A stretch of 64,000 bases of DNA from an uncultured Gemmatimonadaceae bacterium. GTDB taxonomy: Bacteria > Gemmatimonadota > Gemmatimonadetes > Gemmatimonadales > Gemmatimonadaceae. Under the pieces are notes generated by a model. The model saw only the letters and a program-made list of their open reading frames with translations. It was not told the DNA's origin and ran no database searches. Position numbers and translations under genes: made by a program. Where the stretch lies: positions 1 to 64,000 of the forward strand of contig CAWHHI010000010.1 in the NCBI GenBank assembly GCA_963829055.1. The letters run 5' to 3'. Shown here one piece after another: positions 434 through 64,000 of this stretch (the stretch's first letter is position 1; each line of letters begins with the position of its first letter).

Positions 434-890
434 TCTCGCGACCAACCTCCCTCGCTCCTCGCGATGACATGGCGTTAGGCGCTTGACAGAATCGGCTCGT
501 AGGCGCTATCTGTTCCACAGGGCCCGCCAACGCTGGACCTCCAACCACTCCGATCGTGACGCACCGCCTGACGACTCCCTGCACCTCGCTCTCGACGCAT
601 TGCCGCTGCCTGGCCAAGCGCAGCGCGCGTGCGGGCGCTGTGGGCCGCGGCCGCGTCGCTCTCCGCTCCCCACGGCAGTCTTCGCCGATCGAATGCGTGG
701 CGCCTGACGCCGGCGTCTCGATCCGCGTGAACCCAGGGTAACGGCCCGGGCCCCGCGGCTCGGGCCGTTCGTGCGTCCCGCCTCTTCGCCGCTCCGGCCG
801 CGACCGTCCAGTCGCGACCGGCCACGCGCATTCGCCCGACACGAGCGCGCTCGAACAACGCCGCGCCGCGTCACCACCGGGAGCACGACC

Positions 891-2512
891 ATGTCCGCAT
901 TCTACATCACGACCGCCATCGAGTACGCCAACGGCGAGCCGCACGTCGGTCACGCATTCGAGAAGATCGGCGCCGATGCCATCGCCCGATATCGCCGGCT
1001 CCGCGGCGACACCGTCCATCTGCTCGTCGGCACCGACGACCACGGGCTCAAGGTCGCCCGCGCGGCGCAGGCCGCGGGTCGCACGCCAGGCGAGCAGGCC
1101 GACCAGATCAGCGCGGCATTCCGGCACACGTGGGATACGTTAGGCGTCGGGTACGACCGCTTCGTCCGCACCAGCACCGCGGGGCACGCCGCAGGCGTGC
1201 GGGCCATCATCGAGCGGATTCTCGCGCGGCATCCGGACGCATTCTACGAGAAGGCATACGAAGGCTGGTACTGCGTCGGGTGCGAGTCGTTTCGCGCAGC
1301 GCGTGAGCTCGACCACGGTCGCTGTGCCGTCCATCCGTCGCTCGACATCGAGCGAGTGGCGGAGTCGAACTGGTTCTTCCGCCTGAGCGCGTTCCGGGAG
1401 CAGCTGACGACTTTCCTGAGGGCAACACCAGAGTTCGTGCAGCCGGCCGCGCGATACAACGAGGTGCTCTCGCTGGTCGAACGCGGCCTCGAGGACGTCT
1501 CGATCACTCGGGCGTCGCTCGACTGGGGGATTCCCTTCCCGCTCGCTGACGCTCGCGGCCGATACCAGACGATCTACGTCTGGTTCGACGCGCTGCCGAG
1601 CTACCTGACGGCGACCGGCTTTCCCGACGCGCACGACGGTGCCGAGTGGCCGGCGCAGGTCCACGTCGTGGGGAAGGACATCACGCGCTTCCATTGCGTG
1701 CTGTGGCCCGCGGTCCTCTTCGCGGCCGGCCTGCCACTGCCGGAGCGCGTCTGGGCACACGGCTTCGTCACGGCGAATGGCGTACGACTGAGCAAGAGCG
1801 CTGGCGCCTGGATCGACCTCGACGAGGCGATCCAGCGACACGGCGTCGACGCGCTGCGGTATTTCCTGCTCCGCGAGATTCCGTTCGACGCCGATGGGGA
1901 TTTCAGCTGGCAGCGTTTCGAGAGCCGGTACGCAGCGGATCTCGCCAACACGCTGGGGAACCTAACGAGCCGAGTCGCCGCGCTCGTCGCGCGGCACGCG
2001 CCCGACGGCTGCGTTCCGCAGCGGATCCAGACCGATCGCGCACGGGTCCGTCGCGGACGCGATTCAGGCGACCGAAGCGCGAACCGCGCTCGCGCTGGAG
2101 CGCTACGTTGCCGCGTTCGAGGGGCACGTGCCTCACGAGGCCCTGAACGCGGTTTTCGAATGTACTCATCGGCGGGAACGAGTTGATCAGCCGAACGGCG
2201 CCCTGGGCCTTGGTAGCCGACCCGGCGCGACGCGACGACTTCGACTGGACGATTCGCGCGGCCGTCACGCTGCTCGCCCAGGCGGCGGTACTGCTCTGGC
2301 CCGTCATCCCGGCGACGGCCGAGCGGCTGTGGCACTCGTTAGGTGGGCCGGGGTGTGTGGAGGCGCAACGGCTTGCCGATGTCGGTCGGCTGGATCCAAC
2401 GGGTTGGCGGGTTACGCGAATTCCGCCGTTGTTTCCCGCGGTGAGGAAGTGGGGGGTCGAGTCGAATTTCAAGGGGTCAGAGCCCTTGAACCGGGCGGTT
2501 CAAGGGCTCTGA
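891..2512 (+). CDS. metG: Methionyl-tRNA synthetase (short form), frameshifted near 2040-2185
   Basis: N-terminal FYITTAIEYANGEPHVGH (HIGH motif), GTDDHG, CVGCE zinc knuckle, YVWFDAL, GKDITRFH, RLSKS (KMSKS motif). The anticodon-binding part continues in ORF 2183-2512. Confidence 0.95.
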
Positions 2513-2521
2513 CCCCTTGAA
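2468..2521. repeat. Perfect 26-bp-arm palindrome (GGGGTCAGA/TCTGACCCC REP type) between convergent genes; possible terminator
   Basis: TTCAAGGGGTCAGAGCCCTTGAACCG-gg-CGGTTCAAGGGCTCTGACCCCTTGAA. Confidence 0.85.
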
Positions 2522-2557
2522 GTTCGGACTCTGACGCCAATTTCGCCCCCGGCTCCC

Positions 2558-3763: not shown

Positions 3764-6552
3764 TCAGTCAGTTCGCAGCGCCTCGAGCGGACCGACGCGA
3801 GCGGCACGCGACGCAGGCACGTAGCCCGCGATCGCCGCGCTCACGGCCAGCACGCCGAGCGCAACGCCGATCGACGGCAGGTCCACAGAGCTCGACGCCG
3901 AAGAGCTGATTCCGGAGCAGGCGCGTCGCGGCGATCGCGAGCGGAACCCCGACGATCGTCTCCGCCGATGACCAGTCTCATCGCCTCGCTCAGCACCATG
4001 CCGCGCACACGAGCGCGTCGGCCCCGAGCGCCATCCGGAGACCGAACTCGCTCGTGCGACGCAGCGTCGCGTACATCATCACGCCATACAGGCCTAACGC
4101 GGCGAGGGCGAGCGCCAGCGTGCCGAAGAAGCTCGCGACCTGGGCGACGAGCAGGTCCTGGCTGATGGACTGGCGCATGAGCGACGTGAGCGGCTCGTTG
4201 TCGAGCACGACCACCGACGCGTTGGCCGCCGTGAGCTCGCGGCGAGCCGCGGCCACGAGCTTCGCGGGGTCACCGGCCGCGAGCAGCTCGTACGTGAACT
4301 CCGTCGGCATGCCCGACGTCTGGAACACCGGCAGGTAGAGTCGTCCGCGCGGGCGCCTGGCGCAGCTCGTGGTCCCTCGTGTCGGCAACGACACCGACGA
4401 TCTCGTAGGTCGATGCTGTCGACCTTCATGCGACGCCCAAGCGCCTGGCCCTTCGGGAAGTAGAACGACGCCATCGTCTGGTTGACCACGGCGACGGGCG
4501 GCGCGTGCTCGTTGTCCGACTCGGCGAAGTCGCGTCCCTCGATGAACCGCGCGCCGATCGCCTTGAAATACCCTGGCCCGACGCGGTCGTAGTTCGCGGT
4601 GGTGTCGGCTTCGGTGCGAGGCGTGAAGCCCTCGACCTGACAGATTCGTGAACGACTCGGTGCCGCTGAAGATCCCGTTCTCCGAGAAGCTCGCCTCAGC
4701 GACGCCCGGGATGCGCCGAACGCGCTCGAGCAACTCGCGCGACAGCTGTGCGAGGCGCTCGTTGTCCAGACCTGTTGGCGCGGCGTCGATCGTGACGATC
4801 AGCAGACGGTCGCGCGCCAGGCCAGGATCGACGTTCGAGAGCGCCCGCGTGCTGCGCACCAGCATGCTCGTTCCCACGAGCAGCGTGAGCGAGAGCGCAA
4901 CCTGACCCACGACGAGCAGCTTCCCAACGCCGAGTCGACCCGGCGCGCCCAGCAGGCCGCCGGTGGTCCCCGCGGCTGTGGGCGCGAAGCGTGGCCGCGA
5001 GCTCGACGCGCGTGGCCCGCAGCGCGGGGATGAGTCCGAACAGGAGCGCCGTGACGCCCGGTGACGAGCACCGTGAACGCCAGCACGCGAACATCGAGCC
5101 GCGTGTCGAGCGGTACCGACCCGGGCCACCGTCGGCGATGTGCAGCAGGACCGTGCTCCCCCAGCTCGCGAGCACGAGACCGACCGCGCCGCCTAACGCG
5201 GCGACGATGAGATTCTCGGTCAGCAGTTGCCGCACGAGCCGGATGCGGCCGGCGCCGAGCGCCATGCGAACGCCGAGCTCGCGGGAGCGAGCCGCGCCGC
5301 GGGCGAGCAGCAGGTTCGCGACGTTCGCGCAGACCACGAGCAGCACGAGCGCCACCGCCGCCATGAGCGTGTTGAGCGGCTCGGCGTAGACGGCCCGGAG
5401 TCCCGGAGATGCCGCGTGCGCCGGATTCGACCTTGACTTCGTCCTTCCGGATGCTGGAGACGCCATGGGCATCCGGCGCCGTCGCGATCACCGCCTGCCG
5501 CACCAGCGTCGGATACGCCGACTGAACCTGCGCGAGCGTGACGCCAGGCCTCCGGCGTCCGATCAACAGCAGCCAGCTCTGCGTCGGCGACTTGAGCCAG
5601 TCGCGACTGGTGAGCGCCGGCTGCATGGTGAGCGGCATCCAGATGTCGGTCATGCGGCCGACGACTTCGCCGGTGAATCCCGGCGGTGCGACGCCGACGA
5701 CGGTGAACGGGATGCGGTTCACGGTGATGGCGCGACCGATGATGCTGCGATCGCCGGCGAATCGCCGCTGCCAGTACGCGTGGCTCAGCACCGCGACGGC
5801 GACGCCGTTGGCGACGCGGTCGTCGTCGACCGTGAGCGGGCGGCCGAGCGCAGCGGGACGCCGAGGACCGCGAAGTAGTTGCCGCTGACGAGGCGCCCGC
5901 GCGGATGCTCCTCGCCCGGCGGCACCGCTCCGCCTGCGCGTGCGGAGTCGGGGATCATGACGTCGAGCCGCCCGGCGCGACCGCGCGGCCAGCGAGCCCG
6001 GTGAAGAAGCGCGTCTCCTTTCGGAGCTCGAGGTAGGCACGGATAGGAGAACAGGTCGAAACGCAGCGAGCCGTCGGACGCGCTGTTCGTGCGCCGCGAA
6101 TCGCCGATCACGACGAGCTGGTCGGCGTTAGGCACCGGCAGCGGCCGCAGCAGCAGCGCGTCGATGAGCGTGAAGATCGCGGTGTTCGCGCCGATGCCGA
6201 TCGCGAGCGACAGCACGATCACGAGCGCGAAGCCGAGGTTGTTGCGGAGGGATCGCACGGCGTACGTCACGTCCTGGCGCAGCTCGGCGAAGTAGTTGGC
6301 GCGCTTCACGGTCTTCTCCTGCTGATGGTCGATGTCGAGCATCTCGGCGCGGACGGTGTCCCAGTCGCCGAACTGCGCGGAGTGCCTGCGCGCGAGCGGC
6401 GGCGGGGTCCATGCCGCGCTCGACGAGGCGCCGGATGCGCATGTCGAGGTGGAAGGCGAGCTCGGCGTCGACGTCGCGTTCGACGCGGTGAGGTCCGAGC
6501 TCGAGGCGGAAGAGCCGCCGCTTGCGGGTGGCGTGCGGTCGGAGTCCGTCAT
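3764..6552 (-). CDS. ABC transporter permease, MacB/FtsX duplicated orphan permease type, multiply frameshifted
   Basis: [70 protein letters not shown] and C-terminal PLEALRTD, spread over several frames. Confidence 0.9.
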
Positions 6553-7147: not shown

Positions 7148-8018
7148 CTACGGTTTGATCACTCCCAAGCGCTTCGCGATCAGCCGATCGAGGATGCGCG
7201 CGGGGAGCGCCAGCGGGATCGTCCAGTTCAGCAGCCGGCGGCGCACGACTGGGTAGGACGTTCGAGGCGATGGCGTAGTCAGGGCGGTCCAGACGGCGTG
7301 ACCGACTGCGTCGGCGGGGAGACCGGCGCGGCCACTCGTCAGAGCCGCGGTCAGGAATCGCGTCAGTAGCGGCTCGTATTCCGTGCCCGCGTATCGCGTC
7401 CCATCCTGCGACTCGGCCTTGTCCCAGATCGGCGTTGCGACCGAGCCGGGGTTGATGATCACCACGTCGATGCCGTACAGCATCAACTCTCGACGCAGGC
7501 TCTCGGACATTCCTTCGAGTGCGCGCTTCGACGCGGCGTAGGCGCCGAGGAACGGGGCGCTCAGGCGGCCGGCGACGGAGCTGATCTGGACGATTCGTCC
7601 CGGGCTTCCCCGTGCGGGACGGTCGGCGCCGAGGAGCGGGGCGAAGGCCTGCGTCGCAGCAAGCGCGCCGACGACATTCACCTCGAGAATGGCGGCGGAC
7701 TTCGTCGAGCGGCTGATGGATGAGCGGGCCGCCGACCGCTATGCCGGCGTTGTTCACGAGCCCGAACAGCGTGTCGCCCGTCGAGCGCCGCGGCAACGGC
7801 AGGCACGGCAGCGCGAATGGCGTCGACGTCGGTGACGTCGAACACGAGCGGCGTGAACCGGTCGCCCAGCTCGGCGCGCACTCGGTGCGCCGTCGGCTCC
7901 GCGCCTAACGCTGCCGAACACGTGGACGCCGTGGCCGACGAGGACGCGCGCGATCGCGAGCCCGATGCCGGTCGACGCGCCGGTGACGACGACGCACGGT
8001 GCGCGGTGTGATCGTCAT
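7148..8018 (-). CDS. Short-chain dehydrogenase/reductase, frameshifted
   Basis: VVTGASTGIG, LVNNAG, ISSVAG, YAASK catalytic motif. Confidence 0.9.
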
Positions 8019-8158: not shown

Positions 8159-9709
8159 TCAGCGCGGCGCGCGCTTGATGATCATGCCGGGTCTCGCGCC
8201 CGTCGTCTTGCTGTCGGCGTACACCTCGCTCGCCGTTCACCCACACGCGCTCGATCCCCACCGACGTCAGGTGCGGCTGCTGCGGCGTCGCGCGGTCGAT
8301 CACCGTTGCCGGGATCGAACAGCACGAGGTCCGCGAACATGCCCGGCGTTAGGCGTCCACGATCGCTGGATCCCCATGTGCTCCGCCGCGAGCGACGTCA
8401 TGCGGTGCACGGCTTCCTCGAGCGACATCACCTTGCGCTCGCGGACGTAGACGCCGAGGAAGCGCGGGAACGCGCCGAAGCCGCGCGGGTGCGGGCCGTC
8501 GAGCGAACCGTCGGTGCTCAGGTTCGAGTGCGGCCAGCGCATGATGCGCTCGACGTCCGGCTCCACCATGCTCGTGCCGATCACGCTCTGCGTCGAATGG
8601 CCCGTCTTGACGCGCATCGCCTCGGATTCGCGAATGAGGTCGATGAGCGTCGTGATCGAGTCCGTGCCGCGCAGCTTCGAGATCTCGGCGACGGTCTTGC
8701 CGGCGTACGACGGGGTTCGGCTCGTAGCGACCGAGCAGCAGGCCGCCTGGCGTGGACGTCTGCGGTGAGCGCGAACTCGGCGGACGTGCGATTCTCGAAG
8801 TCGCGCTTCGGGAAGAGGACGGTGAGCGTCGAGTGCCAGTAGAGGTACGGGTAGATGTCGGCCGTGATGTCCACGCCGCTCGCGCGCGCCGCGTCGAGGA
8901 TCCTAACGAGACTGTCGGCGTGACCCCACAGCGCGCGCATGGCGAGCTTCGCGTGCGAGATCTGGACGGGGAGCTTCGCCTCGCGGCCGATGGTGATGAT
9001 CTCGTCGATCGCCTGCCAGAACGCGAAGTCCTCGCTCCGGATGTGGCTGATGTAGCGACCGCCGAACGAAGCGGCGACCTTCGCGAGCGCGATGACCTCG
9101 GCGCGGTCGGAGTAGATGCCGGGGTCGTACTCGAGGCCTGACGAGAGGCCGATCGCGCCGGCGCGCATCTCGCTCGCCAGCATCGCGCTCATGCGCGCGA
9201 CTTCGGCCGGCGTGGCGACGCGCTTGAAGTCCGCACCCATCACGGAGTCGCGAATGCTGCCGTGGCCGACGTACATGCCGACGTTGACGGCGGCCGGCGA
9301 TTTCTCGAGGCGAGCGAAGTAGTCGGCGAGCGGGAGCGGTCGAGCCGCCGTCCTGGCCGCCTATAATGGTAGTGATCCCCTGTGAGACGACGGCGAGCGC
9401 GTCGGGTTGCTCGAATAGATCGTCGTCGGCGTGGGAGTGCGTGTCGATGAAGCCGGGCGCGAGGGCGAGCCCGCGCGCGTCGATGGTACGCTCGCCGGTG
9501 CGCGGGGTCACGTCGCCGACGGCCGCGATGCGGTCACCCTCGACGCGGACGGCGCCTCGGCGTGCCTGGAGAGCCGGTGCCGTCGACCACGAGCGCGTTC
9601 GTGATGACGAAGCTCGGGCGCGCGGGCGTCGCGGAGGCGACGATGCGGGGCGCACGCGGTTCCCACGGCGAGCAGAGCGAGACGGGCGTAAGTGAATCGA
9701 TGGCATCAT
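8159..9709 (-). CDS. N-acyl-D-amino-acid deacylase family amidohydrolase, frameshifted
   Basis: LAPGFIDTHSH, QGITT..GQDG, GAIGLSSGLEY, YISHIRSE, ISHAK, HPRGFGAFPRFLG, EAVHRMTSL. Confidence 0.9.
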
Positions 9710-22912: not shown

Positions 22913-22937
22913 CGACGCCCTGCTCGCGTGCCTAACG

Positions 22938-45795: not shown

Positions 45796-46127
45796 TCGCG
45801 GCCGCCCACATGCCTCATCTCATTTCAGGCCATCGATCAGAGTTCCCGAGGCATTGGGCCGACAGCCGATGCCGACACCAACAGCAACATCGCCGGCAGT
45901 AACAAAGTCAGCAGTGCTCTCGACCCAAAGTCCCGGAACGTGAACAGCACGATCACGAGGCCGACCGCGCGGACCCGACAGATTGCGTTGGACACCAGGG
46001 AATTCAGCCGGGTCGGATGCGGGCTTCGTGCCAATGCCGCGTTATGCAGCCGAAATGATTCGTCGCTAGTGAGCCGCCTCGGGCGATGTCCATGCTCGAG
46101 CTACCGCCGTTAGGCATGTGCGAGGAC

Positions 46128-54386: not shown

Positions 54387-56558
54387 ATGACACGCAGATT
54401 CGCTTCGCGCGCCCGTTTCGCCGGCGCGCTTCGCCTTGTTCGCCGTCCGGCCCCTCTTCTCATCGCCTGGGCGCTCCCGAGCGTCCCCGGGCCGGCCACC
54501 GAGCCGGTCCGTCTTCCGAACCTAACGACGGCCGCTGCGCCCACAGTCAGCGAGCCGCTCTCTCGGATTACCGCCAGCGACAACCGCGTGCGCGCCGGTC
54601 GGCTCGAGGGCGGCGTGCTCACCGTTCGCCTCGACGCACGGAACGGCATGTGGTATCCCGAAGGCCCGAACGGTGTTGGGCTTCCAGTCGCCGCGTTCGC
54701 CGAAGAAGGCAAAGGGCTCCAGAACCCCGGGCCACTGATCCGCGTGCCCGTCGGCACCGAGGTGCGAGTCACGCTCCGCAATTCGCTCGCGAAGCCGCTC
54801 ACGGTATTCGGGCTCGGGCAACAGCGCGGGATCAGCGGAGACAGTGTGATCGTGCAGGCCGGAGAAGTCCGGGACGTACGGTTCCGTGCGACCGCTGCCG
54901 GCACCTACTACTACGCCGGCAGGACGAGTCCCAGCGGGCGCGTGCTCGGCCGAGGGGCGGCGGATAGTCAACTCAACGGCGCGATCGTGGTGGATCCGGC
55001 GGACGCCGGCGTCACGCCTAACGACCGCGTCTTCATGATCTCGTGGTGGTATAGCATCGCGCCCGCGAGCCCGACCGGCCTCGGCCGCGCGACCCTGGTG
55101 ATCAACGGCCGTTCGTGGCCGCACACCGAACGGCTGGATGCGACGCAGGGCGACTCGCTCCGCTGGCGGTGGATCAACCTCACGGAGCTCGACCACCCGA
55201 TGCACCTGCACGGGTTCTACTTCCGCGTCGATGCGGCCGGCGACGGAGCGAAATACACCACGTACACGCCCGACGAGCAGCGCCGCGCAGTGACCGAGGT
55301 TCTGCCGCCGGGAGGGACGATGGCGTTGGCGTGGTCACCCAACCGTGGCGGCAACTGGATCTTTCACTGCCACTTCGCCGGCCACATCTCGCACCTCGTG
55401 TCGCTCGGCACCGAGAACGGCCAGCCGATTGCCGGCCCGAGCGAGCAGGCGCACGACGGTGAGCATGTGCATGATGGCTCCGGTAATGGCCACGCGCATG
55501 CGGCTCCCCATCAGGCCCATCAGATGGCCGGCCTCGTGCTCGGCATCCGCGTCGCGCCACGCGGCGTCGCCGCCGCGGCAACGCGTGCGTACCGGCCGAT
55601 GCGGCTCCTGGTACGCTCGAAGCCTAACGTGTATGGCGAGCGGCCCGGGTTCTCGTACGTGCTCGGAGGATCACCGGCCGAGGCCGACACCACGACGTTG
55701 CCGTTGCCGGGCGCGACCCTGGTGCTGCAGAAGGATCAGCCGGTCGCGATCACGGTCGTGAACCAGTCGTTCGAACCGGCGGCCGTGCACTGGCACGGCA
55801 TCGAGCTGGAGAGCTTTCCCGACGGCGTCCCCGGCTGGAGCGGCGACGCGAAGTCGACGTTGCCGGCCATCCCTCCGGGGGATTCGCTCACGGTGCGCTT
55901 CACGCCGCCGCGTGCCGGAACGTTCATGTATCACTCGCACTTCAACGAGTTCAACCAGATCTCGTCCGGATTGTACGGGGCGATCGTCGTCGTCGACTCC
56001 GGGAAGAAGTACGATCCGGAAATCGATCGCGTGCTGCTCGTGAGCGATGACGGACCAACGACGAACATCATCCGCGGACCGTTCTCACGTGCGCTCCTCA
56101 ATGGACGCGCGAATCCCGAGCCGCTCGAGCTTCGCGCAGGGGTGACGTATCGCTTTCGCCTGATCAACATCCGGACGGACTACATGGCGACGATCGCGTT
56201 GCTCGATGGCGAGACGCCGCTCGAGTGGCGGGTGGTCGCGAAGGACGGCATGGACCTGCCGCCCTCCCAGGCGACGCTGCGTCCGGCACGGCTGACATTC
56301 GCCGCGGGCGAGATCCACGACGTGGAGTTCACGCCGCGCGCGCCAGGCGAGCTCACGCTGCAATTCGGGTCGCCGCAGCAGGGACCTATTGCGGCGCAGG
56401 TTGTCGGCGTGCGAGTGACAGGTGCGGTGAATCTCGGCCTGAGGAAGGAGGCCGGAGGAAGGAGGCCTGAGGAAGGAGGAGAAAGCGTGTCATCCCGAGG
56501 AGCGATAGCGACGAGCGGACCTTCTGTGAAGTACTCGTGGCAAGGCTGGCTACGATGA
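54387..56558 (+). CDS. Multicopper oxidase, four cupredoxin domains (3' end runs into repeats; true stop may be near 56430)
   Basis: PGPLIRV..G, HPMHLHG, WIFHCHFAGH, His-rich insert, VHWHG, GTFMYHSH. Confidence 0.9.
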   Translation: MTRRFASRARFAGALRLVRRPAPLLIAWALPSVPGPATEPVRLPNLTTAAAPTVSEPLSRITASDNRVRAGRLEGGVLTVRLDARNGMWYPEGPNGVGLPVAAFAEEGKGLQNPGPLIRVPVGTEVRVTLRNSLAKPLTVFGLGQQRGISGDSVIVQAGEVRDVRFRATAAGTYYYAGRTSPSGRVLGRGAADSQLNGAIVVDPADAGVTPNDRVFMISWWYSIAPASPTGLGRATLVINGRSWPHTERLDATQGDSLRWRWINLTELDHPMHLHGFYFRVDAAGDGAKYTTYTPDEQRRAVTEVLPPGGTMALAWSPNRGGNWIFHCHFAGHISHLVSLGTENGQPIAGPSEQAHDGEHVHDGSGNGHAHAAPHQAHQMAGLVLGIRVAPRGVAAAATRAYRPMRLLVRSKPNVYGERPGFSYVLGGSPAEADTTTLPLPGATLVLQKDQPVAITVVNQSFEPAAVHWHGIELESFPDGVPGWSGDAKSTLPAIPPGDSLTVRFTPPRAGTFMYHSHFNEFNQISSGLYGAIVVVDSGKKYDPEIDRVLLVSDDGPTTNIIRGPFSRALLNGRANPEPLELRAGVTYRFRLINIRTDYMATIALLDGETPLEWRVVAKDGMDLPPSQATLRPARLTFAAGEIHDVEFTPRAPGELTLQFGSPQQGPIAAQVVGVRVTGAVNLGLRKEAGGRRPEEGGESVSSRGAIATSGPSVKYSWQGWLR

Positions 56559-56654: not shown

Positions 56655-59170
56655 TCATCCACCCCGCAACGCTACCAATGGCTGCACCCCCGCCGCCCGG
56701 CGCGCCGGGAGCCAGCAGGCGACGCCGGCAATCGCCAGGAACACCACGACCATCGTCGCGAACGTCAGTGGGTCGTTAGGCGTCACGCCGACGAGCAGTT
56801 TCGTCATCGCTCGCGTCAGCACGAGCGCCGCCGCGAGGCCTACCACAATGCCGATCGCGCTCAGGGCCAGGCCCTGGCCCACGACCATGCGGAAGATTTC
56901 CGACGGCTGCGCGCCGAACGCCATCCGCACGCCGATCTCCGCCACGCGCTGGCGCACGAGGCTCGAGAGTACGCCGTACAGTCCGATCGCCGCCAGCGTC
57001 GCGGCGAGGCCCGCGAACACCGCGATCAACGCCATCGCGAATCGCGTCGGCGCCATCGCGCGATCGATGTAGTCGGTCAGCGGCCTGACCTCCGTGACGA
57101 GGAGCTGCGGATCGAGGTCCGTCAGCGCCGAGCGCACCGGGCCGGCGAGCGCCGCGGGATCGCCATTCGTGCGAACGATCCAGGCGCCGGCGGCGTTCTG
57201 CTGCGCGCCGTTGCTGAAGTAGATCGACTCCTTCTCATCGCCCACGAGCGACGTGTGCCGCTGATGCGCCACGACACCGATGACCTCGAACTTTTCGGGC
57301 TGCGGGGTCGAGATGCGAGCCAGCAGGCTTTTGCCGACCGCCGATTCGTTCGGAAACGCCAGCGCGGCGACGCGATCGTCGATCACGATCGTCTTGGCGT
57401 TAGGCGCGTCATCGCGGGCGTCGAAGGTGCGCCCGGCGATCAGCCGACCGCGCATTGCCTCGAAGTACCCCGGCATCACGATGTGAAACTGGCCCTGGCG
57501 GAACTTCGTCGGGTCGCCAATGGCGGCGTCCGTGCCCCATCGCCCGCTCGACTGCAGATTCTCCAGCGGCAACACTGCCGTGGCGGTCACGGCCTGCACG
57601 CCGGGCACGCCGCTCAGCCGTTGGCGAATGAGCGAGTTCTTCGCGACCGCCTCTTCGTTCGAGCGCACGCGCAGGTTCCCGAGGCGGAACGTGAGCAGTC
57701 CGTTCGCGGTGAAGCCCGGGTCTACGTGCTGGAGCGCGACGGCGCTCCGGATCATGAGCCCGCACCCGACGAGGAGCACGAACGACAGCGCCACCTCCGC
57801 CATCACCACCGACTTTCGCAAGAGTGTGCCGTGCCCGCCGGTCGCGCCTCGTCCACCCGCGCGCAACGCCTCCGAGAGGTCCGGACGCGACGCTCGCACC
57901 GCGGGCACCAGTCCGAAGACGATCGACGACAGGACACACGCGCCGATGGCGAACGCGAGCACGGTCGGATCCATCGACACCGCGGTCATCCGTGGAAGGT
58001 CCGCCGGCGCAAGTCTCAGCAGGAGGCCGATCCCGAAGTACGCGAAGACCAGCCCAAGCAAACCGCCAGCGCCGGCGAGCACGAGACTCTCCGCGAGCAG
58101 CTGTCGCGTGAGCGCCCACTGCGATCCACCTAACGCCGCGCGCACCGCCATCTCGCGATCGCGGCCGGAGAGCGCGCACGAGCAGCAGGTTCGCGACGTT
58201 CGCGCAGGCGATGAGCAGCACGAAGATCACGGCGCCCATGAGCGCACGGATCGTCGGCTTCACGGTCGCGACGACGTTCTCCTTCATCGACTCGACACGA
58301 AAGTGATGGTCCACCGACTGCTTGATCGCGAATCGCGTGCGAAGGTCCGCCGCGACCCGCTCCACCTGCTGTTGAGCCGCCGCGAGCGTCGTCGTCGCCT
58401 TCATGCGACCGACCACGAAGCAGCACACGTTCGTGCGCAGCGAGGTCGGCGGCGTAGTCGAAGCGAATCGCCGTCCACACGTCGGGCACACGTGCCACGT
58501 TGGCCTTGGGAGGAAAGAGCAGCTCGACACCCGGCGCGAGCACTCCGACGACCTGCACGGGGCCGAAGTCCAGCTGAATGTTCTTCCCAATGATCGATGG
58601 GTCGGCGCCGTACTGGCGTCGCCAGAACCCGTCGCTCAGCACGGCGATCTGCGGCAGGCGTGGCTGTGGCGGGCCAGCCGGTTGGGCCTGCGGACCACCG
58701 GCCTGCGGACCCCCATCGGGTTGCGGCGCGCGCGGCTGGGCGCGGCCGTCTTCGTCGGTGAAGCCGCGCCCGCGGGCGATCTTCACACCGAGCACGGAGA
58801 AGATGTTGGTCGTCACGCCAGCCGTCTGGATCTGCTGCGGCGGCCCGCCTTCGACGATCAGCGCAGCCGGGTTGGTGTTGACGGCGGCGAGGCCTTCGAA
58901 CAGCGTCGCCTGATCCATCAGGTCCTTGAGATCGCCCGGCGAGAACAGCCAGTCGTACACTTTCCGCGTCCGGAGCTCGCCCCAGATGATGGTGAGGCGC
59001 TCGGGGTGGTCGTACGGCAGCGGCCGGAGCAGGACCGAGTTCACGACGCTGAAGATGGCGGTCGTGGCTCCGATGCCGAGCGCCAGGGTGGCAATCGCGG
59101 TGAGCGCGAACGCGAGGTTCTTGCGCAGCGTGCGCGCGGCGAAGATCAGGTCTCGCACGAACATCCGCAT
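56655..59170 (-). CDS. ABC transporter permease, MacB/FtsX duplicated orphan permease type, frameshifted
   Basis: [68 protein letters not shown]. Confidence 0.92.
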
Positions 59171-60151: not shown

Positions 60152-61815
60152 ATGACGCAACGCGTACATATGCCGAGAGCGAGACCGTCGATTTCGTGAT
60201 CGTCGGATCCGGCGCCGCGGGCGGCGTGCTGGCGAAGGAGCTCTCGACCGCCGGCTTCGATGTCGTCGTGCTCGAGCAGGGTCCATGGCAGCAGCCATCG
60301 CAGTTCACGCACGACGAGCTCGCGGTCGAGCGGCAGTTCGAGATGCTCAACATCGCGGTCGAGCCGGTTCAGACGTATCCGAACGACAGAAGCCGAACCG
60401 GCGAAGCCGGAACACCGGGCGCGCTGCTCGCGTACCGCCGGGGCGTGGGCGGCAGCAGCGTGCACTTCGCCGCGAATTACTGGCGGTTCCGCCCGATCGA
60501 CTTCAACGAGCGTTCGCGGTGGGGATCGATCAGCGGCACCGGGTTCGCCGACTGGCCGATCACGTACGAGGAGCTCGAGCCGTACTACACGAAGGTCGAT
60601 TGGGAGATCGGCGTGTCCGGCGCCCCGGGGCCGTTCGATGCACGCCGCGCTCGCGGCCTATCCGCTCCCGCCGCTGCCTAACAAGTCGTCCGGCGTGCTG
60701 CTCGAGCGTGCCGCGAGCAGGCTCGGCCTGCACGCCCAGGTGTCGCCGATGGCGATCCTCTCGAAGCCGTACGACGGCCGCTCAGCGTGCATGGCGTGTG
60801 GACACTGCTCGCTACTATGGGTGCGAGTTCGGCGCGAAGTCGTCGACGCTCGCGACGGTGATCCCGAAAGCGGTCACGACCGGTCGGTGCGAGATCCGCG
60901 CCGAGTCTACCGTCTTCCGCGTCGAGACGAACACCAGGGGACGTGCGACCGGCGTCGTATACTGGGATCGCGCGGGCAAGGAGCGGCGCCAGTCCGCTCG
61001 CGCTGTCGTGCTCGCGGCGAACGGGGCCGAGACGACTCGGCTGCTGCTCCTGTCGACGTCGCCGGCGTTTCCGCACGGTCTCGCGAACTCGAGCGGGAAC
61101 GTCGGTCGCTACATCATGTTCAACGGCCACGCGAGCACGTTCGGCCGCTTCGAGCATCCGCTGAACGAGTACAAGGGCGCCGTCGCGAGCCGCGTCGTGC
61201 ATGACTTCTACGAATCGGACGCGAAGCGTGGCTTCTACGGCGGCGGCGGCATCGATGCGCGCTTCCCGTACGGTCCGATCATGTTCGCCGCTGACCGAGA
61301 CTGCCGCCCGATCGTGCCGGCGTGGGGACGCGAGTACAAGCGAACGCTTCGCGACTACTACACGCACTCGGTCCGGTTCATGGCGCACCTCACGTCGCTG
61401 CCGGTCGCGACGCAACACCATCTCGCTCGATCCCGAGCACCGGGATTCGTGGGGACGTCCCGCGTTGCGCCTAACGTACCGGGACCATCCGGACGACATG
61501 AAGGCGGAGCACTGGTTCCACGATCGGACGCAGGAGCTGATGGAAGCGGCCGGTGCGACGCGACGTCTGGCGAGTGCCGATTCTCCCGATCGGATGGCGG
61601 CGTTCACCTGCTCGGCACCGCGCGCATGGGCAACGATCCGCGCGATTCGGTGGTCGACCGCTACCACCGCGCGCACGACGTGCCGAACCTCTTCATCTGC
61701 GACGGCAGCAGCTTCGTCACGTCGGGCCGCGGCCAGCCGACGATGACGATCCAGGCGCTCGCGTTTCGCGCCGCCGAGCATATCGCGCGGCTTCGCGCGG
61801 TCGCACGAGATCTGA
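60152..61815 (+). CDS. GMC family FAD oxidoreductase, frameshifted
   Basis: DFVIVGSGAAGG, VGGSSVH, DWPITYEELEPYY, LANSSG.VGRY, HLLGTARMG.DP..SVVD, NLF..DGS, PTMTIQALA. Confidence 0.92.
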
Positions 61816-61829: not shown

Positions 61830-62007
61830 GAGGAAGGAGGCCTGAGGAAGGAGGGCGGAGGGCGGAGGGCGGAGGGCGGAGGGCGGATGGCGGAGAAACG
61901 GCGGTGTCATCCCGAGCGCCAGCGAGGGATCTTCTCGAACGTACATCGTGGCTAGACCGGCCACGAGTACTTCACCGAAGATCCCTCGCTGCCGCTCGGG
62001 ATGACAA
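61830..62007. repeat. Composite repeat: (GGCGGAG)n + GTCATCCCGAG REP
   Basis: Reverse-complement homolog of 56488-56651. Confidence 0.85.
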
Positions 62008-62096
62008 CCTGAATCAATCCGTTAGATCAGACGAATCCGTTCGCTCCTGTTGTCTGAGATGGCTGCGGAAGTAGTCACTGGTGTCTTCGCGATCCG

Positions 62097-63350
62097 CTAG
62101 GCGCGCGCCATCGCGCCAGCGAGCAACTGACAGAGCACCGCTCCCACGATGCTCATCGAGAGCCCCCAGATGAGCAGCTGGCGGAACAGCACGCGCGCGT
62201 CCGCGACATCCGCCACCGCGGCCACGCAGAGCGCGCCTAACGTCGAGAGCGGGGAGACGTCCACCAGCGCACCGCCCACGTTGATGCTGAGCGAGACGGC
62301 GAGTGGGTCACCGCCTCCTACCTTCGCGACGAGCCCGGGCACCGCCGGCAGAAAGGTCGGCATCACCACACCAGTGGTGCTGCTCCAACTCGAGATCAAG
62401 CCGGTCACGAATGCGACCACGCCGTTCACACTCGCCGGCGTCGCCAGGCGCGCGAGCAGCGACGTGAAGAGATCCATGCCGCCGGTCTTCTCGAGGAGCG
62501 CGATGAGCACGGTCACACCGCACACCATCATGATCACGCCCCAGGGAACGCGCCGCACAGCGGACGACTCGTCAGCGAGCCGCGCCAGGACGATGATCGA
62601 CGCCGCCGCGAACGCCGCCATGCCGACGCTCGCCTTGAACCCGACGACGGCGACGATCCACACACCAATGACGGCAAGCGTGATCGCGTGGCGTCGATCG
62701 AAATCGACGACCGGGAGCGCCTCGCCGTCCACCGCGGCTTTGCGAGGAGTCAGACGATATCCGCCTAACACCAGATACGCGGCGGCCGACACGAGCGCGT
62801 GCGCAATGAGACTCGCGAGCCACACCTTCGTCTCGTGGCCACCATTGCCAGCCTCCGCCATCTTCGTGTTCGCGATGACGCCGGCCGCGCTGATCGGCGA
62901 GAGATTCCCCGCATTCGCCCCATTGGCCACCATGAGCGAGGTCAGGAACGGCGGCACGCCGGCACGGGTGCTGACGGCCATCGCCAGTGGAATCAGCAGG
63001 GCGACAGTGGAGATCGCACCCGGGCCGATCGACGACAGCGTGAACGCGATGACGAAGAACACCAGCGGGATGACACGCGCGTTGCCACGTGCGAGCCTGA
63101 CGGCGCGGTTCGCGAGCCGCTCCAGCGTCCCATTCGTTTCCGCAAGCGCGAACAGCAGCGTGACGCCCGCGAGCGTGAGAAAGAGCGACGACGGAAACCC
63201 CGCCGCGACCTGATCCGGCTTGAGGCCGGCCATCGCCGTGCCGATGATCCACGCGAACGCCATCGCCACCACGCCGACGTTCACGCGCGACGTGAGCGAC
63301 AGCGCGATCGCGAGCAGCAGCGCGATGAGCGACGCGACTGCCGGGCTCAA
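62097..63350 (-). CDS. matC: MatC-like dicarboxylate (malonate) carrier, SLC13/ion transporter superfamily
   Basis: VNVG..A, GFP..LF.TL.GVT.LF.LA..NGTL, GANAG..SPIS, W......GV, SSTTG, VDVSPLSTLGAL. Its start overlaps the matB-like stop. Confidence 0.7.
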   Translation of the reverse strand: MSPAVASLIALLLAIALSLTSRVNVGVVAMAFAWIIGTAMAGLKPDQVAAGFPSSLFLTLAGVTLLFALAETNGTLERLANRAVRLARGNARVIPLVFFVIAFTLSSIGPGAISTVALLIPLAMAVSTRAGVPPFLTSLMVANGANAGNLSPISAAGVIANTKMAEAGNGGHETKVWLASLIAHALVSAAAYLVLGGYRLTPRKAAVDGEALPVVDFDRRHAITLAVIGVWIVAVVGFKASVGMAAFAAASIIVLARLADESSAVRRVPWGVIMMVCGVTVLIALLEKTGGMDLFTSLLARLATPASVNGVVAFVTGLISSWSSTTGVVMPTFLPAVPGLVAKVGGGDPLAVSLSINVGGALVDVSPLSTLGALCVAAVADVADARVLFRQLLIWGLSMSIVGAVLCQLLAGAMARA

Positions 63351-64000
63351 GCGCCCGCCCAGGGCGGCAGGAAGCGCTTCTGCACCTTGCCTAACGCATT
63401 ACGCGGGAGTGCGTCCACGCGAACGAATCCGCGCGGCACCTTGAATGACGCGAGCGACCGGACGCACGCCGCACGCAGCGCCTCCGCATCCATCGGGCCG
63501 TCGCTCACGACGTACGCCACCGGCACCTCGCCGCGTCGCTCGTCAGGCGCACCCACCACCGCGGCCTCTCGCACGCCGGGCTGTTCCAGCAACAGCTCCT
63601 CGATCTCGCGCGGATAGATGTTGAAGCCGCCCGATATGATCAGGTCCGACGCCCGGCCTCGCAGCGTGTAGTACCCATCCGCCGAGCGCTCGGCCAGATC
63701 GCCCGTGCGGAACCACCCGTCTTCGAACGCCGCCGTTGTCGCGTCCGGATTCTGCCAGTAGCCGGCGAACACGTTAGGCCCACGGACCAGCACCTGGGCG
63801 ATCTCCCCTTCCCCGGGCGCTTGACCGCTCGGCAGGGCGAGCCGCACCGAGACTCCCGGAAGCGGGAGCCCCACTGTCCCCGGTCGCCGCTCGCCCTCAT
63901 ACGGATTCGAGATGAGCATGAGCGTCTCGCTCATGCCGTAGCGCTCGAGGATCGTGTGGCCGAAACGCTCACGAAACGCGTCGTGTACCTGCGCTGGTAG
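63347..64000 (-). CDS. matB: Malonyl-CoA synthetase-like AMP-binding enzyme, 3' part (5' end outside window)
   Basis: GHTILERYGMSET, SNPY.GERRPGTVG.PLPGV, GPNVF.GYW, GWFRTGD, DLIISGGFNIYP, LPRNALGKVQK. Confidence 0.75.
   Translation of the reverse strand, partial: LPAQVHDAFRERFGHTILERYGMSETLMLISNPYEGERRPGTVGLPLPGVSVRLALPSGQAPGEGEIAQVLVRGPNVFAGYWQNPDATTAAFEDGWFRTGDLAERSADGYYTLRGRASDLIISGGFNIYPREIEELLLEQPGVREAAVVGAPDERRGEVPVAYVVSDGPMDAEALRAACVRSLASFKVPRGFVRVDALPRNALGKVQKRFLPPWAGA

Follow-up and report, generated by a model that had tools for sequence, protein, structure and literature searches.

An abundant octamer in the window

The window (the whole stretch of DNA analysed, 64,000 nucleotides) includes genes for a MetRS-like protein, an acyl-CoA synthetase, TonB-dependent receptors, a multicopper oxidase, and an FtsX/MacB permease, and within and between its genes lies one recurrent eight-letter word, GCCTAACG. 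The word occurs exactly 55 times, 31 on the plus and 24 on the minus strand, against 1.08 expected from dinucleotide shuffles (n = 100; SD 0.94, maximum 4), none of which reached 55. Its core, CCTAAC/GTTAGG, is present 75 times (43 +, 32 -): 55 times as GCCTAACG, 10 as ACCTAACG, 6 as GCCTAACA, 2 as CCCTAACG, and once each as TCCTAACG and CCCTAACC. The first-pass annotation had reached the same 75 cores, strand counts, and 55/10/6 split by hand, and an exact GCCTAACG starts at every example position it gave. Cores lie 855 bp apart on average, with a widest gap of 3223 bp (12664-15887), in agreement with its figures of ~850 bp and ~3.2 kb; the widest gap between exact copies is 4071 bp (57398-61469).

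In which contexts do the exact copies occur? The word is read in a Pro-Asn frame in coding sequences (CDSs) at 8347..8354(-), 12577..12584(+), 22711..22718(+), 53366..53373(-), 61469..61476(+), and 63772..63779(-), in CDS 15953-17740(-) at 16660..16667(-), in a Ser/Thr kinase-TPR CDS (18921..18928(+)), in a TonB-dependent receptor CDS (39903..39910(+)), and twice each in the multicopper oxidase (55016..55023(+) and 55622..55629(+)) and FtsX/MacB permease (56774..56781(-) and 57398..57405(-)) CDSs; the copy at 6126..6133(-) is read in a called CDS as xxG CCT AAC Gxx. The Leu-Gly frame is used at 37559..37566(-) and 63389..63396(+), in CDSs 15953-17740(-) (15998..16005(+)), 22938-23336(-) (23253..23260(+)), 31558-32862(+) (32375..32382(-)), and 34735-35847(+) (35408..35415(-)), in a TonB-dependent receptor fragment, 35936-37471(+) (36087..36094(-)), and in a MatC/CitMHS transporter CDS, 62097-63350(-) (62235..62242(+)). 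The reading xCG TTA GGC is found in the MetRS-like CDS 891-2186(+), assigned by Pfam (1138..1145(-)), in called CDS 3990-4328(-) (4092..4099(+)), and in the acyl-CoA synthetase CDS 25309-26943(+), where the copy at 25949..25956(-) is kept in four of four genus orthologues. The copies at 26957..26964(-), 14 bp past the stop of that CDS, and at 27066..27073(-) are absent from the three genus orthologues. Further frames are xGC CTA ACG in the Ser/Thr kinase-TPR CDS named above (20303..20310(+)), xxC GTT AGG Cxx in an LMF1-like CDS (45249..45256(-)), Leu-Thr at 47765..47772(+) and 48856..48863(-), and Val-Arg at 48388..48395(+).

Elsewhere the word supplies a stop codon. Its TAA ends the open reading frames (ORFs) 10084-10674(+) (10669..10676(+), outside the gene calls made), 17279-18091(+) (18086..18093(+)), 29044-29499(-) (29042..29049(-)), 30975-31571(+) (31566..31573(+), which CDS 31558-32862 also reads in the Pro-Asn frame), and 32816-34129(+) (34124..34131(+)). 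Its TAG is the stop of called CDS 34083-34505(+) (34500..34507(-)) and, on the strand opposite the copy at 29977..29984(+), of called CDS 29979-30689(-). The remaining copies fall outside the gene calls made, at 473..480(-), 5191..5198(+), 7903..7910(+), 11035..11042(+), 17925..17932(+), 22930..22937(+), 23794..23801(+), 28495..28502(+), 28774..28781(-), 33325..33332(-), 34697..34704(+), 42801..42808(+), 46108..46115(-), 51536..51543(-), 52026..52033(+), and 52465..52472(+).

Genome-wide enrichment and codon context

How abundant is the word across the genome? The studied genome (G000), a MAG of 7.78 Mb in 20 contigs (86% complete) from an uncultured Gemmatimonadaceae soil bacterium, carries 5004 copies, about one per 1.5 kb, with copies on every contig. 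Observed counts exceed expectation 17-, 38-, 49-, and 19-fold under Markov models of order 0, 1, 2, and 3, respectively, and the first-pass estimate of some 20-fold was of the right order. In the genome-wide count of 8-mers against Markov nulls that it had proposed, GCCTAACG ranks 14th by abundance and first by order-3 z-score (296), and the next 12 words are its own shifted versions. The word has the core CCTAAC and outer bases G>A, with a minor variant, GCATAACG, whose count in each of the seven genus genomes is ~8-13% that of the main word; in G000, GCCTAACA ranks third among the variants (435 copies). Our literature search found no published description of GCCTAACG abundance.

The first-pass annotation had allowed that the enrichment might vanish in shuffles that preserve codons and amino acids, and it persists: the 3898 confident CDSs of G000 hold 2681 copies, compared with 110±11 (maximum 129) in 20 synonymous-codon shuffles. 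In these CDSs the word accounts for 1105 of the 2203 TTA codons, 492 of the 2689 CTA codons, 730 of the 5985 CCT codons, and 354 of the 4001 AGG codons. The enrichment is thus the product of a DNA-level force acting against the genome's own codon habits, and the word is found in genes and spacers alike. Weakly constrained positions hold more of it: its density rises at stop codons and immediately downstream. Among confident genes, 125 of 498 TAA and 103 of 1046 TAG stops lie inside the word; because it contains both triplets, ~6% of these genes take their stop codon from it. The first 50 bp past stops hold 123 and 132 copies, vs. ~37-85 per internal 50-bp bin. Among 10-kb windows, the 10% most atypical in composition average 4.9 copies, vs. 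6.4-6.8 elsewhere.

Orientation, spacing, and turnover

Orientation in G000 is balanced (2457 forward, 2547 reverse). Orientation z-scores, computed in 145 50-kb bins, have an SD of 1.02 and a correlation with GC skew of r = -0.14 (P = 0.09). The word is strand-symmetric and lacks replichore polarity, which bears out the earlier argument against a Chi- or KOPS-like role. A mobile repeat was rejected because the flanks of the copies are not conserved. Copies are spaced more evenly than chance would give and show an exclusion zone of ~200 bp: there are 71 gaps below 100 bp where 315 are expected and 144 of 100-200 bp where 296 are expected, while gaps of 500-1500 bp occur at 1.24-1.33 times and those of 2.5-10 kb at 0.6-0.9 times expectation. 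A sample from G014, a genome of another genus, has the same exclusion zone, with gaps below 100 bp at 0.22 times expectation.

Within the genus, sites of the word are retained at 2.7 times the rate of average 8-mers, yet they turn over. An alignment of G000 with its congener G005 (109 kb at 80% identity) has 32 sites in common, 23 confined to G000, and 27 confined to G005, so that 58% and 54% are kept, vs. 21.6% for any 8-mer window. Against G014 (~71% identity), most sites differ: 10 are common to both genomes, 18 occur only in G000, and 67 only in G014. At the homologous position, the genome without the word typically has GCCGAGCG or GCCGAACG. Copies arise by point substitution at near-matches (e.g., xCG CTC GGC to xCG TTA GGC), without indels.

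All six other genus genomes, whose assemblies are much more fragmented, carry the word at similar density; within the genus, density differs two-fold, with 2501-5112 copies among genomes of 7.1-7.5 Mb. Of 41 relatives, 14 have more copies of the word than of its reversed control; a sample of 251 genomes across the phylum gave 10 such cases, made up of 10 of 170 from the same order and 0 of 81 from outside it. Enrichment is patchy, spanning several genera and three families of one order, and a dialect-like variant, GCCAAACG, is found in G010 (111 copies, 16 expected). Word abundance does not track the integron integrase IntI, ComEC, or the one methyltransferase (MTase) found.

Phage contigs and integron core sites

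The word also occurs on some phage contigs, in the same reading frames as in the host. Contig L291, with major head, scaffold, portal, and terminase genes, carries 31 copies in 16,975 bp (0.5 expected; 1.83 per kb), of which 5 are read as xxG CCT AAC G, 5 as xCG TTA GGC, and 3 in other frames. Three further contigs (L269, L221, and L235; clear phage genes in the first two) carry 0.5-1.0 copies per kb. These densities are those of viral contigs obtained by a scan that required a pair of copies on one strand at a distance of 400-430 bp. Where related (pro)phages reside in word-poor hosts, their portal-gene regions, 5.1 kb each, contain 0 copies; thus word content follows the host rather than the phage lineage.

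The word equals the integron attC/attI core site that cassette arrays in this order employ. Excerpts of PMC12901181 give GTTRRRY/RYYYAAC as the consensus of the attC R'/R'' boxes and the attI R box, and CGTTAGGC/GCCTAACG contains it. In word-poor G027 and G025, the word forms dense runs in cassette arrays only; a regular expression drew 33 attC sites from these arrays, each bounded by GCCTAACG and, at its opposite end, by TGTTAGGC, whose complement is GCCTAACA. Many genomes of the order encode an integron integrase, with 24 of 41 scoring above the curated cut-off.

What maintains the word?

The first-pass interpretation of a real, genome-wide, lineage-specific, and nonpolar signal stands, but it missed the integron core identity, the phage carriage, and the use of the word as a stop codon. 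It had listed three functions with no preference among them: an uptake tag, a nucleoid-protein site, and a methylation- or repair-driven motif. A tag of the uptake or HIP1 type best fits the even spacing, substitution-driven spread, and turnover. We tentatively favor, as a possibility short of probable, that GCCTAACG is a lineage-specific, USS/DUS/HIP1-like tag of own-kind DNA with a putative sequence-specific reader. Such a factor would read the word in double-stranded DNA in either orientation. Copies have accumulated to about one per 0.8-1.5 kb, with a second within ~200 bp disfavored, and the force behind this may be a transmission bias of the USS/DUS kind (and of the HIP1 kind, as now proposed). 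Own-kind fragments bearing the word would be favored in cell-to-cell DNA passage, either during type IV pilus/ComEA/ComEC uptake or in survival after entry, so that word-gaining alleles would replace word-less ones by homologous recombination; if a single word per fragment suffices, even spacing would follow.

Strong, specific enrichment by a DNA-level force, strand symmetry, unconserved flanks, even spacing, bias toward weakly constrained positions, retention with turnover, dialect-like variants, patchy order-limited distribution, and fewer copies in compositionally atypical DNA are all consistent with an uptake tag. The required machinery is encoded in G000: ComEC, DprA, secretins, PilB/T-type ATPases, seven pilin-like ORFs, and a ComEA-like HHH_3 ORF adjoining PilT-like ATPases. 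However, word-rich and word-poor relatives alike encode ComEC (40 of 41), so machinery does not explain which genomes have the word; we found no specificity factor for GCCTAACG, and the literature found reports no uptake or transformation in any Gemmatimonadota. Pure transformation drive also does not predict host-like or higher density on phage contigs. Under such a drive, this carriage would be expected only of temperate phages evolving as part of the chromosome; it better fits a reader acting inside the cell. Nor does an uptake tag explain why the word is an integron core site.

A reader inside the cell is what a protective self tag would involve: a host nuclease, translocase, or defense system would spare, or stop on, densely word-bearing DNA, much as Chi acts for RecBCD/AddAB but without replication polarity, and resident phages would copy the tag. 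We consider this unlikely, even though phage contigs carry the word in host reading frames, the word content of portal regions follows the host, even spacing with few long gaps would leave no break far from a tag, and equal strand counts would serve breaks anywhere. The Chi sites known so far follow replication polarity and are only few-fold enriched, unlike this nonpolar word, which is enriched 19-49 times, a level that weak per-site selection is unlikely to reach against codon bias.

Alternatively, methylation coupled to repair, of the HIP1 or very-short-patch (VSP) type, could generate the word: an MTase would mark it and linked mismatch or nick repair would convert near-matches, so that all DNA replicated in such cells, that of phages too, would drift toward it. 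Spread by substitution without indels and the presence of the word in phage DNA both agree. Eco57I-type MTases read asymmetric words, and G000 encodes one such (gamma N6-adenine) domain fused to an SNF2 helicase. Of 41 relatives, however, 39 have the same MTase-helicase, among them genomes poor in the word, and G000, at 86% completeness, has no match to PF01555, PF02384, or PF00145. Known VSP effects are only few-fold, HIP1 is a palindrome and GCCTAACG is not, and site-autonomous conversion predicts neither the ~200-bp exclusion nor the deficit of long gaps. Excerpts of PMC13756078 ascribe to HIP1 the same set of properties (substitution-driven spread, coding and noncoding conservation, quasi-periodic spacing, and polyphyletic distribution) and report two methylases that recognize it. 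On balance we regard this origin as rather improbable.

Even spacing, indifference to orientation, presence in genes and spacers, and conservation above background would also suit a nucleoid-associated or chromosome-structuring protein needing one site about every kilobase. We doubt this explanation: per-site selection would be very weak, yet codon bias is overridden 24-fold; sister genera of the same cell biology wholly lack the word; density varies two-fold within one genus; and no candidate protein was identified.

Could the copies instead be integron-linked? Since the word is an IntI core site (G↓TTAGGC), the chromosome would be studded with IntI-type R boxes, acting as landing, docking, or titration sites for the integron integrase or a related tyrosine recombinase. 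The consensus identity, the attC ends in G027 and G025, the abundance of GCCTAACA, and the frequency of IntI point this way, and by a rough count a random 8-mer contains a GTTRRRY match only ~0.4% of the time. Dispersed copies, however, lack attC architecture (no L boxes, partner R box, or hairpin), and an nhmmer search with the relatives' attC profile returned nothing in G000 at E<=1e-3. IntI does not track the word: word-rich G002, G004, and G010 have no IntI match, and word-poor G007, G008, G009, G011, and G016 have strong ones. We know of no IntI activity that creates sites by point substitution, and this role is very unlikely.

An artefact of assembly, contamination, or base composition, suggested by a 20-contig MAG with genes split across frames and many indel differences (43 single-base ones in 20 kb against contigs of other runs), has next to no probability, because the word, which the first-pass annotation allowed might be limited to one contig or assembly, is on 20 of 20 contigs, in six of six other genus genomes, and in other genera, exceeds Markov and codon-preserving nulls, and is conserved at orthologous sites.

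Comparison with known systems

Chi and KOPS are polar, whereas GCCTAACG in G000 is not. Inverted pairs acting as terminators are typical of DUS and USS but rare for this word (13 pairs within 60 bp among 4984 neighbor pairs), which counts against an uptake tag. Even so, the tentatively favored reading likens GCCTAACG, in the genes and spacers of these Gemmatimonadaceae, to the self-recognition tags of Neisseria, Haemophilus, and cyanobacteria.

Genome-Wide Enrichment of the Word

How abundant is GCCTAACG, the nonpalindromic octamer with the core CCTAAC/GTTAGG (hereafter, the word)? The first-pass annotation had hand counted about 75 cores in the window, about 850 bp apart with a largest gap of about 3.2 kb, and had taken them for an undescribed chromosomal signal. 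It proposed to check this by counting 8-mers against Markov models, by a null preserving codons and amino acids, by comparing spacing with a Poisson process, by surveying related genomes, and by looking for co-occurring genes. The word positions it reported were all confirmed, and its hand count proved exact: the window holds 75 cores (43 forward, 32 reverse), made up of 55 copies of GCCTAACG (31 forward, 24 reverse), 10 of ACCTAACG, 6 of GCCTAACA, and 4 others, with a mean spacing of 855 bp and a largest gap of 3,223 bp (12664–15887). The expectation for exact GCCTAACG in the window is 1.08, and the largest value among 100 dinucleotide-preserving shuffles is 4.

Across the assembly of the genome under study (G000; 7,784,024 bases in 20 contigs, 67% G+C) there are 5,004 copies—2,457 forward and 2,547 reverse—distributed over 20/20 contigs, which makes the word the 14th commonest of all 8-mers, its three A/T letters notwithstanding. 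Markov models predict 297 (order 0), 131 (order 1), 102 (order 2), and 258 (order 3) copies; enrichment is thus 19- to 49-fold against orders 1 to 3. Ranked by order-3 z-score, GCCTAACG tops all 8-mers (z = 296), and ranks 2 to 13 are its own shifted versions. Information content in the flanks never exceeds 0.13 bit beyond the eight positions, so the word is bare and no part of a longer repeat. A mobile repeat of the REP or MITE type was rejected on this ground and because orthologue alignments show substitutions and no insertions. An artefact of assembly, contamination, or composition is excluded as the cause of the enrichment. A MetRS-like protein of the window has its nearest relatives in metagenome-assembled genomes (MAGs) that bear the labels Gemmatimonadaceae, Gemmatimonas sp., or Gemmatimonadota; the organism is accordingly an uncultured member of the Gemmatimonadaceae.

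The CCTAAC core is rigid in this genome, while the outer positions prefer G first and A second. The outer variants ACCTAACG (827 copies) and GCCTAACA (435) each reach 10 to 17 times their Markov expectation. An inner variant, GCATAACG, has 583 copies and is enriched in all seven genomes of the genus at roughly 8 to 13% of the count of the main word; its origin is accordingly biological, and the idea that miscalled bases at a methylated word produce it was rejected. The relative G010 has a second word of its own, GCCAAACG, with 111 copies in sampled DNA against 16 expected.

The assembly itself carries many frameshifts. Pfam matches are broken across frames, one 351-aa open frame matches frames of 1,073 to 1,085 aa in congeners, and the TonB-dependent receptor of the window is split between frames (34735–35847 and 35936–37471). 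Comparison of the window with contigs from four other runs revealed 43 places with single-base indels in 20 kb. Among the 40 base differences listed (836 others lie outside this list), none touched the 184 positions that the word occupies in the 20 kb compared, a comparison with no statistical power.

Two other repetitive features share the window. A second repeat family (8014–8154, 9978–10088, and 12242–12377) is an intergenic inverted repeat of about 110 to 140 bp, laid out as GTCATTCCGAGCG...GTCGAGGAATCG...CGATTCCTCGAC...CGCTCGGAATGACA; the sequence CGGAATGAC occurs 818 times in G000. The sequence GTCATTCC recalls by analogy the NTS/dRS3 hairpin repeats, which are described as being read by Ssn nucleases (PMC11893778). 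A kinase domain at 31879–32671 (CDS 31558–32862) has well over 100 matches in the seven genus genomes at 67 to 75% DNA identity; this paralogue family of Ser/Thr kinases is very large.

Placement Relative to Genes

Does the enrichment survive when protein sequence and codon usage are held constant? Genes were called with our own crude codon/dicodon model, which covered only 69 to 71% of the genome, in part because the assembly is rich in frameshifts; owing to this coverage and the frameshifts, codon analyses were restricted to the 3,898 best-scoring genes (4.39 Mb). Sequence outside these gene calls is not equal to intergenic sequence, and the contrast between coding and intergenic DNA was judged from the stop-codon profile only. 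The 3,898 genes contain 2,681 copies of the word, against 110 ± 11 (maximum 129) in 20 shuffles that permuted synonymous codons inside each gene, leaving its protein and codon usage unchanged, and 50 ± 6 expected when codon order was shuffled. Enrichment thus persists under a null that preserves codons and amino acids, and in these confident genes the word overrides codon bias 24-fold.

Copies within genes occupy the four frames in which the TAA or TAG of the word is not read as a stop: xCG TTA GGC (Leu-Gly, 1,105 copies), xxG CCT AAC Gxx (Pro-Asn, 730), xGC CTA ACG (Leu-Thr, 492), and xxC GTT AGG Cxx (Val-Arg, 354). Rare codons are used in all four, and half of all TTA codons (1,105/2,203) lie within the word. 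A fifth reading ends translation: in 228 of 3,892 genes the stop codon lies within the word (TAA in 125 of 498 cases, TAG in 103 of 1,046). Along the length of genes the copies are evenly distributed. Within the first 50 bp past stops there are 123 and 132 copies in the two orientations, versus some 37 to 85 per internal 50-bp bin, and single copies are 2 to 2.5 times denser in the 50 bp directly 3′ of stops. From its use as a stop codon and its density just beyond stops, it follows that the word is densest where protein constraint is weakest.

Orientation and Spacing

Word orientation is random: its z-score has an SD of 1.02 over 145 bins of 50 kb, and across these bins it is not significantly correlated with GC skew (r = −0.14, P = 0.09). 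Bins with GC skew above 0.01 contain 406 forward and 453 reverse copies, and those below −0.01 contain 659 and 640. The replichores are visible in this assembly, because GC skew and gene-strand bias correlate (r = 0.50). A polar signal of the Chi or KOPS kind is therefore excluded, which bears out the argument already drawn from the lack of strong strand polarity in the first-pass annotation. Near 500 kb on contig C16, GC skew and gene-strand bias change sign as expected at a replication terminus; word density is lowest in the 400- to 500-kb bin of this contig, where 37 copies per 100 kb compare with about 64 on average over the genome.

Copies are spaced more evenly than a Poisson process would place them. 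Against an exponential expectation, short gaps are depleted (71 versus 315 below 100 bp; 144 versus 296 between 100 and 200 bp), gaps of 500 to 1,500 bp reach 1.24 to 1.33 times expectation, gaps of 2.5 to 10 kb are reduced (0.6 to 0.9 times), and there is a small heavy tail beyond 10 kb (13 versus 7). A 260-kb sample of the relative G014, which belongs to another genus and in which the word is twice as dense, likewise excludes close pairs (gaps below 100 bp at 0.22 times expectation). Inverted pairs no more than 60 bp apart are rare in G000, with 13 among 4,984 neighbor pairs.

Compositionally atypical windows of G000 are poorer in word copies. The longest word-free stretch discussed here covers 49.6 kb (G000:C6:5440–55037, loci L180–L182; 70% G+C) and carries genes of housekeeping type, many of them truncated (FtsK, an amidase, and genes for the synthesis of chorismate and aromatic amino acids), along with a D5_N primase-like gene; it may be foreign DNA, a chimeric join, or an element that has integrated. 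Mobile DNA as the general nature of word-free stretches was rejected, since Pfam matches in this stretch and three others of 10 to 16 kb are mostly to ordinary metabolic genes. The same four stretches include one plasmid-type RPA replication initiator besides the D5_N gene, and these two are suggestive at most of mobile word-free DNA.

Distribution and Turnover among Relatives

How far does the word extend beyond this genome? The survey of related genomes found it more frequent than its control, the reversed word, in 14 of 41 relatives. All seven genus genomes are word rich in this sense (2,501 to 5,112 copies), as is G014, with 6,360 copies in 5.1 Mb; G010, G019, G020, G036, G038, and G040 show a lower-level excess. 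In each of the remaining 27 relatives the word falls below control, with counts between 3 and 194 that are mostly under 70. When 8-mers in sampled DNA were ranked by over-representation, the word came first or second in G014 (1.24 copies per kb), G010 (0.16), G040 (0.195; another family, 72% G+C), and G020 (0.2), with copies scattered over both strands, and was not among the top over-represented 8-mers in the sampled DNA of G016. In an even sample of the phylum, 10 of 251 genomes exceed control, all of them among the 170 of the same order: G000, G240 (3,896 copies in 4.0 Mb), G165, G193, G121, G131, G078, and three members of g71, a genus of a second family. Outside the order, 81 genomes were sampled and none does so. 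These tallies include unpublished genomes—G013 in the counts for the 41 relatives and the phylum sample; G085, G203, and G124 in the phylum sample—all of which are word poor, and the denominators alone depend on them.

Orthologous DNA shows how copies come and go. The copy at 25949 of the window, in an acyl-CoA synthetase gene, is retained in 4/4 genus members amid variable flanks. Between G000 and its congener G005 (109 kb aligned to 242 kb, 80% identity), 32 word sites are shared, 23 are found in G000 only, and 27 in G005 only; 58% and 54% of sites are thus kept, as against 21.6% for any 8-mer window. At about 71% identity the counts of shared, G000-only, and other-only sites are 10, 18, and 67 for G014; 3, 91, and 23 for G010; and 3, 21, and 9 for G040, so that between genera most word sites are not common to both genomes. 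The homologous nonword is most often GCCGAGCG or GCCGAACG, that is, xCG CTC GGC or xCG TTC GGC. Thus, the word is written by substitutions, synonymous ones included, at near-matching sites. As judged from these alignments, it originates independently in separate lineages and is then retained above its surroundings, yet it turns over.

Identity with the Integron Core Site

In the published consensus (PMC12901181), the R″ box of attC is given as RYYYAAC and R′ as GTTRRRY, the R box of attI is alike, and crossover falls after the G. The letters of the word are identical to this attC/attI core consensus (G/TTAGGC), and a random 8-mer would match GTTRRRY with a chance of about 0.4% by rough count. 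In word-poor relatives the few copies are grouped in same-strand runs, and the one run read consists of integron cassette arrays. Each unit closes with an attC of 72 to 136 bp that starts with GCCTAACG, ends with TGTTAGGC, and has conserved inner boxes; 33 such sites were extracted by regular expression from G027 and G025. The arrays, which are large (L093/L094, G027:C95:1 to ~24000; L095, on G025:C3; L096, on G027:C80; and L097, on G027:C43), have units of about 500 to 650 bp, and an IntI match stands at the end of the C80 array (G027:C80:6537–7148). On a 7.5-kb contig of word-rich G014 (C10, L113), eleven same-strand copies follow one another at about 350 to 1,000 bp, a run that may be a cassette array. 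Same-strand clusters also occur on L228, L251 (42% G+C), and L272 (30% G+C; spacing about 108 bp) of the viral collection. Most likely these low-G+C clusters come from unrelated organisms, as cassette arrays or tandem repeats, and they show that use of the word as an integron core site extends beyond this phylum.

Are the dispersed copies of G000 halves of attC sites? This was rejected, as their flanks are not conserved and they have almost no paired ends. A regular expression for RYYYAAC..GTTRRRY with complementary ends returned only two palindromic loci in G000, each found on both strands (four hits): G000:C18:97493–97548 and G000:C20:163142–163194. Both are near-perfect palindromes of 52 to 55 bp, with the word or its A-variant at either end of each arm, and they are the sole attC-like candidates by this expression. 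An nhmmer search of G000 with an attC profile from G027 and G025, built from the short sites (up to 105 bp) among the 33, gave no hit. The genome has one weak IntI-like gene (C20:208041–208958; 265.7 bits against a cut-off of 265), around which no attC pairs were found, and its word copies, random in orientation, show no one-strand arraying next to intI. Among the 41 Gemmatimonadales relatives, IntI exceeds the curated cut-off in 24. It was rejected as a gene tracking the word, being strong in word-poor G007, G008, G009, G011, and G016; word-rich G002, G004, and G010 have no IntI match.

Phage Contigs Bearing the Word

Viral contigs were scanned for two same-strand copies of the word 400 to 430 bp apart, which yielded at least 119 stretches; the DNA of 80 was examined, and 15 of the 80 loci carry at least 0.5 copies per kb. 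Because the scan was conditioned on the word, it is uninformative on how common word-bearing phages are. One contig, L291 (IMGVR_UViG_3300049057_000028; 16,975 bp, 61% G+C), bears the word 31 times over its two strands (1.83 per kb), where 0.5 copies are expected. It encodes the major head protein, scaffold, portal, and both terminase subunits, and the word stands in host-like frames in eight ORFs, of which five are genes of this structural set. Other phage-like contigs are L269 (0.96 per kb; replication genes), L235 (0.81 per kb; a weak endolysin match), and L221 (0.52 per kb; portal and tail genes). L228, L245, and L252, also dense, have same-strand clusters and look like cassette arrays.

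Among 201 genomes of the order, 3 have portal relatives of L291. Of these three, two are word poor—G156 with 37 copies against 276 of the control and G172 with 337 against 575—and the 5.1-kb portal region of each has zero copies. Word content thus goes with the host rather than with the lineage of the phage. A search of G000 for prophage markers gave no HK97 capsid or Terminase_6N hit.

Candidate Readers and Possible Meaning

What might read the word? Uptake genes of G000 include ComEC, a ComEA-like ORF beside PilT-like ATPases, DprA, secretins, PilB/T-type ATPases, and seven pilin-like ORFs. Their presence does not discriminate, because ComEC is encoded by 40 of 41 relatives, and ComEC was rejected as tracking the word. 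Of four methyltransferase (MTase) families searched, the sole match in G000 is an Eco57I-type MTase domain fused to an SNF2 helicase, with no hit to PF01555, PF02384, or PF00145; present in 39 of 41 relatives, it too was rejected. The co-occurring gene envisaged at the outset thus failed to emerge among the candidates tested (IntI, ComEC, and this MTase-helicase), none of which follows the word among the 41 relatives. The MTase-helicase gene (N6-adenine; G000:C8:73551–78414, or L209:7551–12414) is in four pieces in G000 and forms an open frame of 985 to 1,133 aa in most relatives; its sequence identity among the 39 Gemmatimonadales that have it tracks kinship, and it looks like a core gene.

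The force behind the word is strong, driven by substitution, symmetric between strands, and saturating near one copy per kilobase; it varies two-fold within the genus and is absent from sister genera. This combination looks like transmission bias rather than ordinary per-site selection. By analogy, the word may be a tag of own-kind DNA like the uptake sequences (USS/DUS), a reading that we place first, tentatively and short of an even chance, because this signature has been documented in the uptake sequences of Pasteurellaceae and Neisseriaceae and also, there with methylation involved, in HIP1. The phage result shifts weight toward a reader inside the cell, where the word would serve as a protective self tag; we regard this as possible, if on the unlikely side. 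With similar reserve we suggest that the word could be a sequence-encoded, nonmethyl "self" mark: an intracellular host system would spare DNA that shows it about every kilobase, and the badge would be shared by chromosomal DNA, by adapted phages, and, through their attC ends, by integron cassettes of the order. If true, this would be a new mode of bacterial self/nonself discrimination.

A bias of methylation or repair that creates the word is less likely again than the self tag, and it does not predict the observed spacing. That the copies are binding sites of a nucleoid protein seems improbable. An integron-linked role is more doubtful than any of these: the letters are the same as in attC/attI and attC sites in the arrays of this order begin with exactly GCCTAACG, but each dispersed copy is a lone 8-mer, in most cases inside an ordinary gene, that has no L boxes, forms no hairpin, and has no intI beside it.

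To our knowledge, very few lineages (Neisseriaceae, Pasteurellaceae, and cyanobacteria) have yielded hyper-abundant genomic words. Each such word gave access to how bacteria recognize DNA of their own kind, and the present one adds a further case in Gemmatimonadota, a widespread and little-studied soil phylum. We found no published description of GCCTAACG as a genomic word, for this phylum or otherwise, in a search confined to journals open without subscription; its occurrences among the literature matches listed are primers or unrelated. Since the word is common to several genera and to some phage contigs and is identical to the integron core, the ideas of natural competence in Gemmatimonadota, of mimicry of the tag by phages, and of cassette traffic tied to genome tagging are testable. 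It may also serve as a marker for binning, for foreign or chimeric stretches (such as the 49.6-kb word-free stretch), and for assigning phages to hosts.

Comparison with Known Word Systems

Chi and KOPS are polar with respect to replication and only modestly enriched. The word resembles them as an over-represented 8-mer of the core genome and differs in having no polarity and a 19- to 49-fold enrichment.

The likeness to uptake sequences is closer. Competent cells prefer DNA that bears the USS or DUS, and the receptor in Neisseria is a minor pilin of the ComP type; USS are spaced more evenly than at random, inverted pairs after genes are frequent in DUS/USS genomes and act as terminators, and the words are scarce in phages and recently acquired DNA. 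Like the USS of Pasteurellaceae and the DUS of Neisseriaceae, GCCTAACG is a short nonpalindromic word present about once per kilobase, equally on both strands, lying within genes in preferred frames, spread by point substitution, spaced more evenly than chance, accompanied by "dialect" variants in related genera, and confined to one lineage. Unlike them, it belongs to another phylum and is another word, its presence is patchy even inside one family, inverted-pair terminators are rare, phage contigs bear it, and it coincides with the integron core site. The DUS/USS properties compared here are in part general background and in part taken from PMC1939737, PMC1626085, PMC3458573, and PMC11893778.

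HIP1 is described as a conserved word of quasi-periodic spacing and polyphyletic distribution that spreads by substitution, and a role as an aid to DNA exchange or uptake is now proposed for it (PMC13756078). Like this cyanobacterial octamer (GCGATCGC), the word is hyper-abundant, spread by substitution, and conserved in coding and noncoding DNA, with quasi-periodic spacing, a patchy polyphyletic distribution, and secondary variants. HIP1, however, is a palindrome with two cognate methylases, whereas GCCTAACG is asymmetric and differs from its own reverse complement.
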